From assembly GCF_024700885.2 (NCBI RefSeq), contig NZ_CP117016.1: a stretch of 64,000 nt of DNA. One strand, written 5' to 3'. The DNA comes from Escherichia coli (GTDB lineage: Bacteria > Pseudomonadota > Gammaproteobacteria > Enterobacterales > Enterobacteriaceae). Position 1 is the stretch's first letter; every line of letters starts with the position of its first letter. The notes under the pieces are model-generated. The model saw nothing but the letters and a program-made list of their open reading frames with translations. It was not told where the DNA came from and did no database searches. Shown here piece by piece: positions 35,165 through 39,352 of the stretch. Made by a program: the position numbers and the translations under genes.

Positions 35165-37303
35165 TTAACCTATCTGCCCATTTCCCAAATGTTTAACGCG
35201 GCGCTTAACTTCTTCCTGCTTACCAGCGTTAAACGGACGTGCATCCGGGCTACCTAAATATCCGCACACGCGGCGAGTCACCGATACACGGGAGGTGTCA
35301 TGGTTACCACATTTCGGACAAGTGAAGCCTTTACTAGTGCACTCGAACTCACCGGTAAAGCCACACTCGTAGCACTCATCGATCGGCGTATTGGTGCCGT
35401 AATACGGTACATGCTGATAGCTGTAATCCCAGACATCTTCCAGCGCCTTCAGGTTGTGCTGAATGTTTGGATACTCGCCGTAGCAAATGAAACCACCGTT
35501 CGCCAGCGGCGGGTAAGGCGCTTCAAAGTCGATCTTGTCGTATGGGTTCACCTTCTTCTCCACATCGAGGTGGAAACTGTTGGTGTAGTAACCTTTATCG
35601 GTCACGCCCGGCACCACGCCAAACTCAGCGGTATCGAGACGGCAGAAGCGGTCGCACAGGTTTTCACTTGGCGTGCTGTAGAGACTGAAACCGTAACCCG
35701 TTTCTTCTTTCCACTGATCCACTGCCTGACGCAGACGTTCAACAATTGCGATACCTTTCGCGCGAAGCTGCTCGTTGTCGTAAACATGCTCGCCGCCGAA
35801 CAGCGCGTTAATGGTTTCGTGGATGCCGATGTAACCCAGCGAAATAGACGCACGACCGTTTTTGAAGATTTCAGAAACATCATCGTCAGCATTGAGACGC
35901 ACGCCACAAGCACCTTCCATATAGAGGATCGGGGCCACGCGCGCTTTCACGCCTTCGAGACGAGCGATACGGGTCATCAGCGCTTTACGTGCCAGCACCA
36001 GACGTTCATCCAGCAGCTTCCAGAAGGTGGCTTCATCGCCTTTTGCTTCCAGAGCAATACGCGGCAGGTTCAGGCTGATCACGCCGAGGTTGTTACGACC
36101 ATCGTGGATCTGCTCGCCGTTTTCATTTTCCCACACGCCGAGGAAGCTGCGGCAGCCCATCGGGGTTTTAAACGAACCGGTGACTTTCACTACCTGATCG
36201 TAGTTCAGGATATCCGGATACATGCGCTTGCTTGCGCACTCCAGCGCCAGCTGTTTGATGTCGTAGTTCGGATCGCCTTTTTTATGGTTCAGACCATCGC
36301 GAATTGCAAACACCAGTTTCGGGAACACCGCAGTTTTACGGTTTTTACCGAGGCCTGCGATACGATTACGCAGGATAGATTCCTGAATCAGGCGCGATTC
36401 CCAGCTGGTGCCCAGACCAAAACCAAAGGTTACAAACGGTGTTTGACCGTTGGCGGTGTGCAGGGTGTTTACTTCGTACTCCAGCGACTGGAAGGCATCG
36501 TAGCACTCTTTGATGGTACGAGAGTTAGCGTAGCCTTCGGCGTCCGGGATGTTCCACTCTTCTGCGGTCTTGCGATGTTTGTTGTAGCTGGCGGTGACAA
36601 ACGGTGCCAGCACTTCATCGATACGGTTAATGGTGGTGCCGCCATAAATATGGCTGGCGACCTGGGCAATAATCTGCGCAGTTACCGCGGTTGCCGTAGA
36701 GATCGACTTCGGCGGTTCAATCTCGGCGTTCCCCATTTTAAAGCCCTGGGTCAGCATGCCTTTCAGGTCGATCAACATGCAGTTGAACATCGGGAAGAAC
36801 GGTGAGTAATCGAGATCGTGATAGTGAATATCACCACGTTCATGTGCCTGCACCACGTCACGCGGCAGCAGGTGCTGGCGTGCATAGTGTTTAGCCACGA
36901 TCCCGGCCAGCAGATCGCGCTGGGTTGGAATCACCTTGCTGTCTTTGTTGGCGTTTTCGTTGAGCAACGAGGAGTTGGTCTGCTCGACCAGACCACGGAT
37001 CTCCTGGTTCAGGCGGCCGCGTTTTTCACGTTCAATGTCGCGATCGTGACGGTACTCGATGTAAGCACGAGCCAGTTGTTTGTATGGACCCGACATCAGC
37101 TGGTTTTCAACTGCGGTCTGGATCTCATTGATATCCACCTGGTTGCGGCCCTGCATCTGCTCGCTGACAACCGCAGCAACAGTGGCGCAATAATCGGCAT
37201 CATCGACTTCCGCTGCTTTAGCTGCACGCAGAATCGCTTCTTTGATGCGCTCTGATTTAAACGGCACTTTGCAGCCGTCTCGTTTCATCACATGCGGTGT
37301 CAT
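35165..37303 (-). CDS. nrdD: Anaerobic ribonucleoside-triphosphate reductase (class III RNR)
   Basis: 712-aa ORF with C-terminal glycyl-radical region and Cys-rich zinc site. Confidence 0.95.
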   Translation of the reverse strand: MTPHVMKRDGCKVPFKSERIKEAILRAAKAAEVDDADYCATVAAVVSEQMQGRNQVDINEIQTAVENQLMSGPYKQLARAYIEYRHDRDIEREKRGRLNQEIRGLVEQTNSSLLNENANKDSKVIPTQRDLLAGIVAKHYARQHLLPRDVVQAHERGDIHYHDLDYSPFFPMFNCMLIDLKGMLTQGFKMGNAEIEPPKSISTATAVTAQIIAQVASHIYGGTTINRIDEVLAPFVTASYNKHRKTAEEWNIPDAEGYANSRTIKECYDAFQSLEYEVNTLHTANGQTPFVTFGFGLGTSWESRLIQESILRNRIAGLGKNRKTAVFPKLVFAIRDGLNHKKGDPNYDIKQLALECASKRMYPDILNYDQVVKVTGSFKTPMGCRSFLGVWENENGEQIHDGRNNLGVISLNLPRIALEAKGDEATFWKLLDERLVLARKALMTRIARLEGVKARVAPILYMEGACGVRLNADDDVSEIFKNGRASISLGYIGIHETINALFGGEHVYDNEQLRAKGIAIVERLRQAVDQWKEETGYGFSLYSTPSENLCDRFCRLDTAEFGVVPGVTDKGYYTNSFHLDVEKKVNPYDKIDFEAPYPPLANGGFICYGEYPNIQHNLKALEDVWDYSYQHVPYYGTNTPIDECYECGFTGEFECTSKGFTCPKCGNHDTSRVSVTRRVCGYLGSPDARPFNAGKQEEVKRRVKHLGNGQIG

Positions 37304-37538
37304 GATCGCTCCATATTTTTAAGAACAGGTTATCCACAGAAATTGGGAAAGGCGTTTTCCGGTTTTTTCGTTTCGTTTTCCGGTGCTTTCCGCAATCGCC
37401 ATCCGCTTATCCACAACGCCGCACCTTTTTCGTGGGGAGCTGTAGTAGCAATTATAGTCGATTAATACAACATATTGGGTTGGGACGCATTTTAAAGTCT
37501 ATATATAGTGCTTTGCATCAAGGATGTTTGAACTTTTT

Positions 37539-37552
37539 TTGATGTAGCTCAA
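37539..37552. promoter_or_regulatory. FNR-like site TTGAT-GTAG-CTCAA upstream of nrdD
   Basis: Close match to TTGAT-N4-ATCAA about 240 bp upstream of the nrdD start; whether it is a functional site is not established here. Confidence 0.35.
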
Positions 37553-37696
37553 AGTAAAAAGCAGAGCGTACGGATGACGGGCGCTACAGCGATATGTAAA
37601 TTTTTTAATGAATTTGCTGGTTGAAAAATCAACAAAAACAACATGCTGACAGACAAAACCCCGGAATGACCGGCATTACCGGGGTTTAGCGAAGAT

Positions 37697-39352
37697 TTAC
37701 TTTTGTAACCACCAGACAGCCTCAAAAGGCCGTAAAGTCATGGCGCAGGGTTGTGGTGAGGCTTCTTCGTAGTTATGCATCACAAGCTGCCAGTTGCCGC
37801 GCATTTGCCCTAGTTGCCAGGGTTGGATCTCACGGCTAAGGTTGGCAATGACCAACAAGGTTTGCCCCTTCCATTCACGGCGATAGCACCACAATACAGG
37901 GCTGTTTGGCAGCAGATCCTGGTAATCGCCCCATGTCAGAACGGCTTCTTGCTTACGCAGTGCGATTAACTTTTGGTAGGTGTAAAACACCGAGGACTCA
38001 TCGGTCAGCGCGGCTTCTACGTTGATTTGTTGATAGTTATCGCCTAGGCCAATCCACGGTTCGCCAGCCGTAAACCCGGCATTATCGCCGTTGGTCCATT
38101 GCATGGGTGTGCGACTGTTGTCACGGGATTTACTGGCGAGGATTGCCAATAACTCGTCGGCATCACGACCATCGTTGCGCAGCTCGGCAAACATATTGAG
38201 GCTCTCCACGTCGCGATAGTCAGTAATGCGCGTGAAATGCGGGTTGGTCATGCCAATCTCTTCGCCCTGGTAGATATACGGCGTTCCCTGCATGCCATGC
38301 AGCACCATCGCCAGCATTTTTGCCGCAGGCACGCGGTATTCACCTTCATCACCAAAGCGAGAAACAATGCGCGGCTGATCGTGGTTACACCAGAACAAGG
38401 CATTCCATGCCACGTTGTGCATTCCTTGTTGCCAGTGGCGGAACAATGTTTTCAACGCTACAAAGTCAGGTTTAGCCAGCGTCCATTTTTCACCACCGGG
38501 ATAATCGACTTTCAGGTGATGAAAATTAAAGGTCATCGACAATTCACTGCCTGTCAGTGCCGCGTATCGCTGGCAATGCTCAAGGCTGGTGGAGGACATT
38601 TCACCTACGGTCATTAACCCGCGTGGCGTAAACACATCGCGGTTCATCTCGTGCAAAAACTCGTGTGCTCGTGGCCCGTCGGTGTAGAAGCGACGCCCGT
38701 CGCCATCCAGGTCATCAGGGAAACGCGGGTCTTTGGAGATCAGATTCACCACATCCAGGCGCAACCCGTCGACCCCACGATCGGCCCAGAACTCACAGAC
38801 TTTTTTCAGCTCTGCGCGTACCGCTGGATTCTCCCAGTTGAGATCCGCCTGTTCTGGTGCAAAGAGATGCAAATAGTACTGTTCGCTTTCCGCATGCCAG
38901 CGCCACGCACTACCGCCAAATTTTGAACGCCAGTTGTTCGGTGGCGTTTCTGGTTCTCCATCGCGCCAGATATAAAACTGGCGGTAAGGGCTTGCTTTGT
39001 TCAGCGCCTCGCGAAACCAGGCATGTTGGGTAGAGGTATGGTTAAACACCATATCGAGAATGATACGAATCCCGCGCGATTTTGCCTGTGTCACCAGTTC
39101 GTCAAAATCGTCCAGCGTGCCGTAGGTGGGATCAATCGCTGTATAGTTCGCTACGTCGTAACCGTTATCGACCTGGGGAGAGACATAAAAGGGGGTTAGC
39201 CAGATGGCATCAACGCCCAGTTTATGCAGATAGTCCAGGCGCTGGATAACGCCACGTAAATCGCCGGTGCCGCTACCCGTGGTGTCCTGAAAACTCTTTG
39301 GATAAATCTGGTAGATAACGCCGTTTTGCCACCAGTGGGGAAGATTAGTCAT
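37697..39352 (-). CDS. treC: Trehalose-6-phosphate hydrolase
   Basis: Start moved to MTNLPHWWQNGV... for about 551 aa; GH13 alpha-amylase family. Confidence 0.95.
   Translation of the reverse strand: MTNLPHWWQNGVIYQIYPKSFQDTTGSGTGDLRGVIQRLDYLHKLGVDAIWLTPFYVSPQVDNGYDVANYTAIDPTYGTLDDFDELVTQAKSRGIRIILDMVFNHTSTQHAWFREALNKASPYRQFYIWRDGEPETPPNNWRSKFGGSAWRWHAESEQYYLHLFAPEQADLNWENPAVRAELKKVCEFWADRGVDGLRLDVVNLISKDPRFPDDLDGDGRRFYTDGPRAHEFLHEMNRDVFTPRGLMTVGEMSSTSLEHCQRYAALTGSELSMTFNFHHLKVDYPGGEKWTLAKPDFVALKTLFRHWQQGMHNVAWNALFWCNHDQPRIVSRFGDEGEYRVPAAKMLAMVLHGMQGTPYIYQGEEIGMTNPHFTRITDYRDVESLNMFAELRNDGRDADELLAILASKSRDNSRTPMQWTNGDNAGFTAGEPWIGLGDNYQQINVEAALTDESSVFYTYQKLIALRKQEAVLTWGDYQDLLPNSPVLWCYRREWKGQTLLVIANLSREIQPWQLGQMRGNWQLVMHNYEEASPQPCAMTLRPFEAVWWLQK

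Follow-up and report, generated by a model that had tools for sequence, protein, structure and literature searches.

The nrdDG promoter of Escherichia coli K-12 (PnrdD) has been described as a combination of tandem FNR sites and NrdR boxes. A 2023 structural study used a promoter 54-mer, TACTTTGAGCTACATCAAAAAAAGCTCAAACATCCTTGATGCAAAGCACTATAT, that contains two FNR sites, site 1 with its centre at -33.5 and site 2 at -64.5; site 2 has been reported to be necessary and sufficient, that is, the primary activating site, with site 1 boosting activation. Binding of FNR to both sites has been observed by SEC-SAXS and in earlier gel shifts, and mutational data on this sequence are available as well. 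NrdR in the presence of ATP and dATP binds a 57-bp nrdDG probe, GCAAAGCACTATATATAGACTTTAAAATGCGTCCCAACCCAATATGTTGTATTAATC, with a KD of 160 +/- 37 nM, the two boxes being stated to lie 15 bp apart, and binding of H-NS has been reported at the nrdDG region. Finally, a DnaA ChIP-seq study (Stringer, Fitzgerald & Wade 2024; PMC11317965) described a peak with 62-fold coverage 'upstream of nrdD', assigned to the double box tTTAAGAACAggTTATCCACAg; according to that work, the genome contains 32 perfect DnaA boxes, and nrdD is among 16 bound regions. The FNR site and the long leader of nrdDG have thus been textbook-level knowledge since 2003-2008, and DnaA binding at nrdD has been in print since 2024. 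The new part of the present analysis is modest and comparative: the location of the DnaA boxes inside the transcript, their conservation across the order, their fixed geometry, and the existence of a rebuilt version of the arrangement in sister families.

The locus analysed here is part of a stretch of 64,000 nucleotides of E. coli DNA (contig NZ_CP117016.1), which we refer to as the window and in which all positions are numbered. In the list of open reading frames, the nrdD coding sequence, which encodes the 712-aa anaerobic ribonucleoside-triphosphate reductase, occupies positions 35165-37303 of the minus strand, and the 3' end of treC, in the same orientation, terminates with a stop codon at 37697-37699 (minus strand); K-12 and other E. 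coli genomes have an annotated treC at the corresponding position. The intergenic region between these reading frames, 37304-37696, which the earlier note had put at about 390 bp, is 393 bp long and has the same length in K-12 MG1655. A 593-bp query over the region has matches with 100% identity in several E. coli strains and was found in 5425 of 5426 complete genomes. The alignment of the window with K-12 is gapless and contains five substitutions, none of which touches a known site: four are found near the treC terminator, at 37645 or further upstream, and the remaining one, at 37532, where the nrdD strand has T in the window and C in K-12, falls between the two FNR sites, such that the promoter core and the entire leader are identical. 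The locus in the window is that of K-12 PnrdD, and the sequences of FNR-2, FNR-1, the NrdR boxes, the -10 hexamer, the leader and the DnaA boxes are all the same. It is very probable that the nrdDG operon of E. coli is controlled from 37304-37696, with the layout known from the literature. At the treC end of the region, a hairpin at 37653-37690 (minus strand; AAACCCCGG...CCGGGGUUU followed by U's) contains a perfect 9-nt inverted repeat (37656-37664 and 37679-37687), folds as RNA at -18.5 kcal/mol (z = -2.65), and probably acts as the treC terminator.

The FNR-like site that the earlier note had placed roughly 240 bp upstream of the nrdD ATG, at 37539-37552 (minus strand; TTGATGTAGCTCAA on the plus strand and TTGAGCTACATCAA on the nrdD strand), matches TTGAT-N4-ATCAA in 9 of 10 positions, is centred 242 bp upstream of the ATG, and is the published FNR-2, with its centre at -64.5. 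This assignment follows from the position of the published 54-mer, which, save for one substitution, corresponds to 37557-37504 on the minus strand of the window, and the same mapping identifies TTGATGCAAAGCAC at 37521-37508 (minus strand) as FNR-1, centred at -33.5. FNR-1 is located 31 bp downstream of FNR-2, is the weaker match (8 of 10 positions), and shares positions with both the -35 region and the upstream NrdR box; most genera carry a better match at this position, TTGATGCAAATCAC. A motif scan, one of the checks envisaged in the earlier note, recovers FNR-2 with its 9 of 10 matching positions, but the entire 64-kb window contains 4 matches with at most one mismatch, where 2.75 would be expected, and 4 matches are reached in 26 of 100 shuffled sequences, so that by itself the motif match is not above chance.

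This chance-level motif frequency is what would be seen if the match were accidental and the real promoter were located near the ATG. However, the FNR ChIP-seq, gel-shift, SAXS and mutational data concern exactly this sequence, the site and its partner are conserved across genera, and the published data contradict such an arrangement, which makes an accidental match exceedingly improbable. We accept FNR-2 as a real site because of the identity of the ChIP-seq motif, the published promoter oligonucleotides, and the conservation of the site together with its partner 31 bp downstream. In the ChIP-seq study, the nrdD peak is assigned the predicted site TTGATGTAGCTCAA at position 4460919 of U00096.2, with a PWM score of 15.68, and its expression table gives ratios of 0.36 for nrdD and 0.27 for nrdG, which are listed there among the FNR-dependent genes. 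Thus, the ChIP data to which the earlier note had pointed show a peak with the same motif sequence at the same position. For the conversion of coordinates, we assume an offset of 1977 bp between the K-12 sequence versions, which takes 4460919 to 4462896 and hence to position 37539 of the window; the motif sequence at nrdD is consistent with this conversion.

To place the locus in an evolutionary context, we compared 80 nrdD loci, each taken from another species of the Enterobacterales, and derived a conservation profile from 52 Enterobacteriaceae sequences. The conserved islands in this profile are FNR-2, FNR-1, both NrdR boxes, the -10 hexamer, both DnaA boxes and the Shine-Dalgarno sequence of nrdD (GGAG, 37310-37313, minus strand), which is invariant in the alignment. 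The first approximately 40 nt of the leader and the weak partner of the proximal DnaA box are conserved as well, and the leader is otherwise poorly conserved. The FNR pair, at about -242 and -211 from the ATG, is kept with its 31-bp spacing in nearly all of the approximately 50 Enterobacteriaceae loci, and most of the other Enterobacterales carry a single FNR-like site. Upstream of FNR-2, the profile and the alignment of the 52 loci delineate an additional block at 37560-37640 (minus strand; about -80 to -160) that is moderately to highly conserved and includes TTGTTTTTGTTGA, the palindrome GTTGAttttTCAAC at 37630-37617, AATTTACA and GCGCCCGTCATCCGTACG; inspection by eye revealed no convincing match in this block to the consensus sequences of ArcA, NarL, IHF or CRP.

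The FNR sites of the K-12 nrdDG promoter have published positions of -64.5 and -33.5, and a conserved -10 hexamer is found where these positions predict it. This hexamer, TAAAAT at 37489-37494 (minus strand), which we located using the published numbering, is in register in 45 loci, as TAAAAT or as TAGAAT, the latter in many genera, and lies within the 15-bp linker between the NrdR boxes. There is no recognisable -35 element at the nrdDG promoter, as would fit a promoter that depends on an activator, and a generic promoter scan yielded no match on the nrdD strand. The single plus-strand match of that scan falls inside the palindromic NrdR boxes; its terminator match straddles the start codon and is of no use. 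The transcription start was back-calculated from the FNR centres at 37545.5 and 37514.5, using the positions -64.5 and -33.5 quoted in a later paper rather than primary mapping data, which puts +1 most likely at about 37481 (range 37476-37481, minus strand). A promoter fragment described in a metabolic-engineering paper as '87 bp until TSS' corresponds to 37562-37476 of the window and ends 5 nt downstream of the back-calculated +1. The resulting nrdDG 5' leader, 37304-37481 (minus strand), is about 178 nt long (173-178 nt given the uncertainty of +1), in agreement with the long leader that the earlier note had proposed, and the equivalent leader spans 167-184 nt in 45 Enterobacteriaceae loci. 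The primary mapping of the nrdDG start is reportedly that of Boston & Atlung 2003 and Roca et al. 2008, and these two reports, together with Torrents et al. 2007, are cited for the FNR sites and NrdR boxes of PnrdD. None of the published evidence that we found places the start no more than 50 bp from the ATG and the FNR sites elsewhere.

The two NrdR boxes, at 37496-37511 (upstream; GCACTATATATAGACT) and 37465-37480 (downstream; ACCCAATATGTTGTAT), both on the minus strand, are 16-bp AT-centred palindromes separated by a 15-bp linker and bracket the -10 hexamer and the start, as is characteristic of NrdR operators. The upstream box is part of the published probe and is highly conserved; the downstream box, at about +2 to +17, is conserved as well, and the probe GCAAAGCACTATATATAGACTTTAAAATGCGTCCCAACCCAATATGTTGTATTAATC is identical to the sequence of the window. 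With its boxes in this position, NrdR carrying ATP and dATP would be able to shut the promoter. The additional control elements that the earlier note had anticipated do exist, but they had not gone unrecognised: FNR-1, the NrdR boxes, the DnaA boxes and H-NS binding had all been described.

Within the leader, at about +26 to +31, there is a -10-like TATAAT (TAnnnT; 37451-37456, minus strand), which may serve as a secondary promoter or as a pause signal that depends on sigma-70. A second, FNR-independent promoter at this element would give an aerobic mRNA with a shorter leader and would have the downstream NrdR box over its -35 region. The conservation of TAnnnT at this position across genera speaks for such a promoter, as does the published aerobic expression of nrdDG in NrdR- or DnaA-perturbed cells. 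Nevertheless, the element has no acceptable -35 and no extended -10, the promoter scan is empty on this strand, and the available nrdDG literature describes a single start, so we consider an internal promoter improbable.

The leader carries two perfect DnaA boxes, both on the plus strand. The distal box, TTATCCACA at 37407-37415 (about +67 to +75), conforms to the perfect consensus, and no partner box was found for it by inspection of the sequence. The proximal element, TTAAGAACA-gg-TTATCCACA at 37319-37338 (about +144 to +163), is a double box in which the perfect box (37330-37338) is accompanied by TTAAGAACA, a 6 of 9 match in the same orientation 2 bp away; the double box ends 5 nt upstream of the Shine-Dalgarno sequence, and CTGTGGATAACCTGTTC at this element makes up a conserved island. 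These are the only perfect DnaA boxes in the 64-kb window, against 0.43 expected, and they are 77 bp apart, both inside the leader. The published double box tTTAAGAACAggTTATCCACAg is identical to 37319-37338, and the coordinate of the DnaA ChIP-seq peak, 4462739, corresponds to position 37382 of the window, between the two boxes. Table 1 of PMC11317965 is labelled NC_000913.2, yet its coordinates for oriC (3925806) and nrdD (4462739) match the numbering of version.3. The identity, the positions and the occupancy of the FNR, NrdR and DnaA sites are established by the sequence or by the literature.

Comparison of the leaders reveals a characteristic pattern of constraint around these boxes. Two perfect DnaA boxes, at about -112 and -35 from the ATG, are found in nearly all Enterobacteriaceae loci, and both are invariant in approximately 50 species of this family, with variable flanks around the distal box. 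The spacer between the boxes (37339-37406) is 68-69 nt long in 48 of 50 loci, with a mean pairwise identity of only 45%. Similarly, in 42 of 45 loci the distal box is located 66-67 bp from the transcription start; the interval that separates the proximal box from the ATG is variable, ranging from 20 to 31 bp among the loci. The fixed spacings suggest a geometric constraint that acts at the level of DNA. In the window and in Escherichia albertii only, inspection of the alignment showed a 17-nt direct repeat, CGTTTTCCGGT..., in the spacer (37353-37369 and 37374-37390); the spacer appears to have been remodelled in this lineage, with its length of 68 nt retained.

Outside the Enterobacteriaceae, a rebuilt module is present in Yersinia, Serratia, Pectobacterium, Brenneria, Dickeya, Hafnia, Edwardsiella and Leminorella (L056-L081 in our set; for example, L081:1400-1476, L069:1411-1486 and L076:1395-1470). 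Directly after the second NrdR box, these loci carry TTATCCACA-n3-(T)CATCCACA, with the box pair reading TTATCCACA-n3-TCATCCACA, followed by a short GC-rich hairpin with a loop of the CCCTT type and often by a run of T; an inverted TGTGGATAA comes next, before the ribosome-binding site. The outer boxes of the rebuilt module are reverse complements of each other and could also pair in RNA. A few loci of the comparative set are natural variants. In L047 and L049 (Pseudescherichia-type; Pseudescherichia / 'Escherichia sp. ESNIH1'), the leader is about 105 nt shorter, with the FNR sites at -137 and -106 from the ATG, and the DnaA module has been lost, save for one degenerate box in L049; in L048 and L052, the long leader is kept without DnaA boxes. 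To judge what the boxes do, these four loci would be suitable as natural controls.

One explanation of the boxes requires no regulation of nrdDG at all: they could belong to a chromosomal reservoir that merely titrates DnaA, as at datA. Such titration by boxes on the chromosome has been documented, and nrdD accounts for only one of the 16 regions bound by DnaA. Against this stand the linkage of the boxes to nrdD across the order Enterobacterales, even where the arrangement has been rebuilt, the distance between boxes and promoter, which is fixed within 1 bp, and the shifts of the NrdD protein in DnaA-perturbed strains. Because a pure reservoir has no need for such geometry or for linkage to a particular gene, we regard it as unlikely, albeit less so than the internal promoter. 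With respect to the protein, two later studies found NrdD to be raised in DARS2-deletion strains and in strains with very low DnaA, which would fit repression by DnaA; these proteome changes are, however, confounded, given that nrdAB is affected too (it rises), and either NrdR or replication stress could mediate them.

Alternatively, the long leader could control nrdD at the RNA level once transcription has been initiated, be it as a riboswitch, as an attenuator or through a leader peptide. A possible hairpin in the spacer (37342-37396, minus strand; AUUGcGGAAAG ... CUUUCCCAAU) is predicted in the E. coli fold but is weak. Across the alignment of 50 sequences, 68% of the cells pair in this stem compared to 62% after shuffling, a difference of the kind that related sequences alone can produce; its covariation score, calculated for a hand-specified stem in related sequences, is 0.264 compared to 0.197 for shuffled alignments, with none of 500 shuffles as high. 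The hairpin between the boxes in Yersinia, Serratia, Pectobacterium and related genera is clearer: pairing reaches 82% compared to 26-47% in slid registers, there are three compensatory pairs, and the mean fold z is -1.9. The outgroup hairpin is thus better supported than the spacer stem of the Enterobacteriaceae, for which the fold z is -0.4 (-0.42) in E. coli and -0.9 on average in the family.

Other searches for an RNA device gave negative results. A scan of 37100-37900 against Rfam produced no match at threshold, the best E-value being 0.44 and outside the leader, and a scan of four orthologous loci likewise yielded no match at threshold; the matches to SNORD5 and STnc410 are sub-threshold chance matches, with E-values of 0.4-0.6. 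Compared to shuffled sequences, the fold of the whole E. coli leader is not significant (z = -1.32), and RNAalifold detected no covarying pairs in 23 leaders. The upstream open reading frame of the E. coli leader (31 codons from a GTG, or 27 codons from an internal ATG) was dismissed as a candidate leader peptide: frames, lengths and sequences are not conserved between genera, and its GTG is part of a DnaA box. Moreover, the strictly conserved bases coincide exactly with the DnaA 9-mers, which is a DNA-level signature. On balance, an RNA regulator appears about as improbable as the internal promoter. We conclude from these comparisons that the strictly constrained features of the leader most likely are DNA-level ones, namely the boxes and their distances; a supporting hairpin, in RNA or in DNA, is possible.

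A more far-reaching reading is that the leader may be a conserved DnaA-sensing module and not a passive untranslated region. In it, DnaA bound at +67 and +144, across a spacer of 68-69 nt with a possible hairpin, would block or attenuate FNR-activated transcription, with the same gating operating throughout the Enterobacterales and implemented in the other families by three boxes and a terminator-like hairpin. We regard this reading as less likely than not and assign it a probability of roughly 35%.

In the account of the region that we consider very probable, the treC terminator is followed by an activator-dependent sigma-70 promoter with the -10 hexamer TAAAAT and without a usable -35. Under anaerobiosis, FNR at FNR-2 (-64.5, necessary) switches the promoter on, and FNR at FNR-1 (-33.5) boosts it; when dNTPs are plentiful, NrdR with ATP and dATP, at the boxes that bracket the -10 hexamer and the start, can shut it. 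Transcription, with its probable start at about 37481, then passes through the approximately 178-nt leader before reaching the nrdD ATG. The leader is occupied by DnaA, which at +67 and +144 would lower nrdDG expression, either as a roadblock or through a DnaA-DNA complex held at a fixed geometry relative to the promoter. A positioned complex, or a complex and a roadblock combined, is the option favoured by the fixed distances. That DnaA lowers nrdDG expression is what we infer, with regard to both the direction and the mechanism of the effect. Such an effect would couple the anaerobic synthesis of dNTPs to the state of the replication initiator, and if DnaA indeed gates nrdDG, three signals would converge on a single short region, with FNR reporting on oxygen, NrdR on dNTP and ATP pools, and DnaA on the potential for replication initiation. 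The comparative result makes the role of the DnaA boxes directly testable by a few point mutations and by changes of the spacer.

Compared to the double boxes described by Stringer, Fitzgerald & Wade (2024), the proximal element of the nrdDG leader, TTAAGAACAggTTATCCACA, is their nrdD site, and its 2-bp spacing fits their rule. The analysis in PMC11317965 does not, however, place the site relative to the promoter, and it includes neither the second perfect box 77 bp away nor the conservation of the boxes, all of which are the subject of the comparison presented here. The arrangement also resembles the DnaA roadblocks inside transcription units (refs 27-29 cited in PMC11317965), where a high-affinity box is likewise situated between a promoter and a coding sequence; truncated transcripts of the nrdD leader have, however, not been reported, and a simple roadblock does not need a fixed distance from the promoter.

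Another known system for comparison is the aerobic nrdAB operon under DnaA control, which, like nrdDG, is a ribonucleotide reductase operon that combines a double DnaA box with NrdR boxes. The DnaA boxes of nrdAB are located upstream of its core promoter. The published nrdAB boxes are at the promoter or in the region upstream of it, whereas those of nrdDG, at +67 and +144, are inside the leader. Given this placement, the mechanism at nrdDG is likely to differ from that at nrdAB and could involve, for example, a block of elongation or looping.
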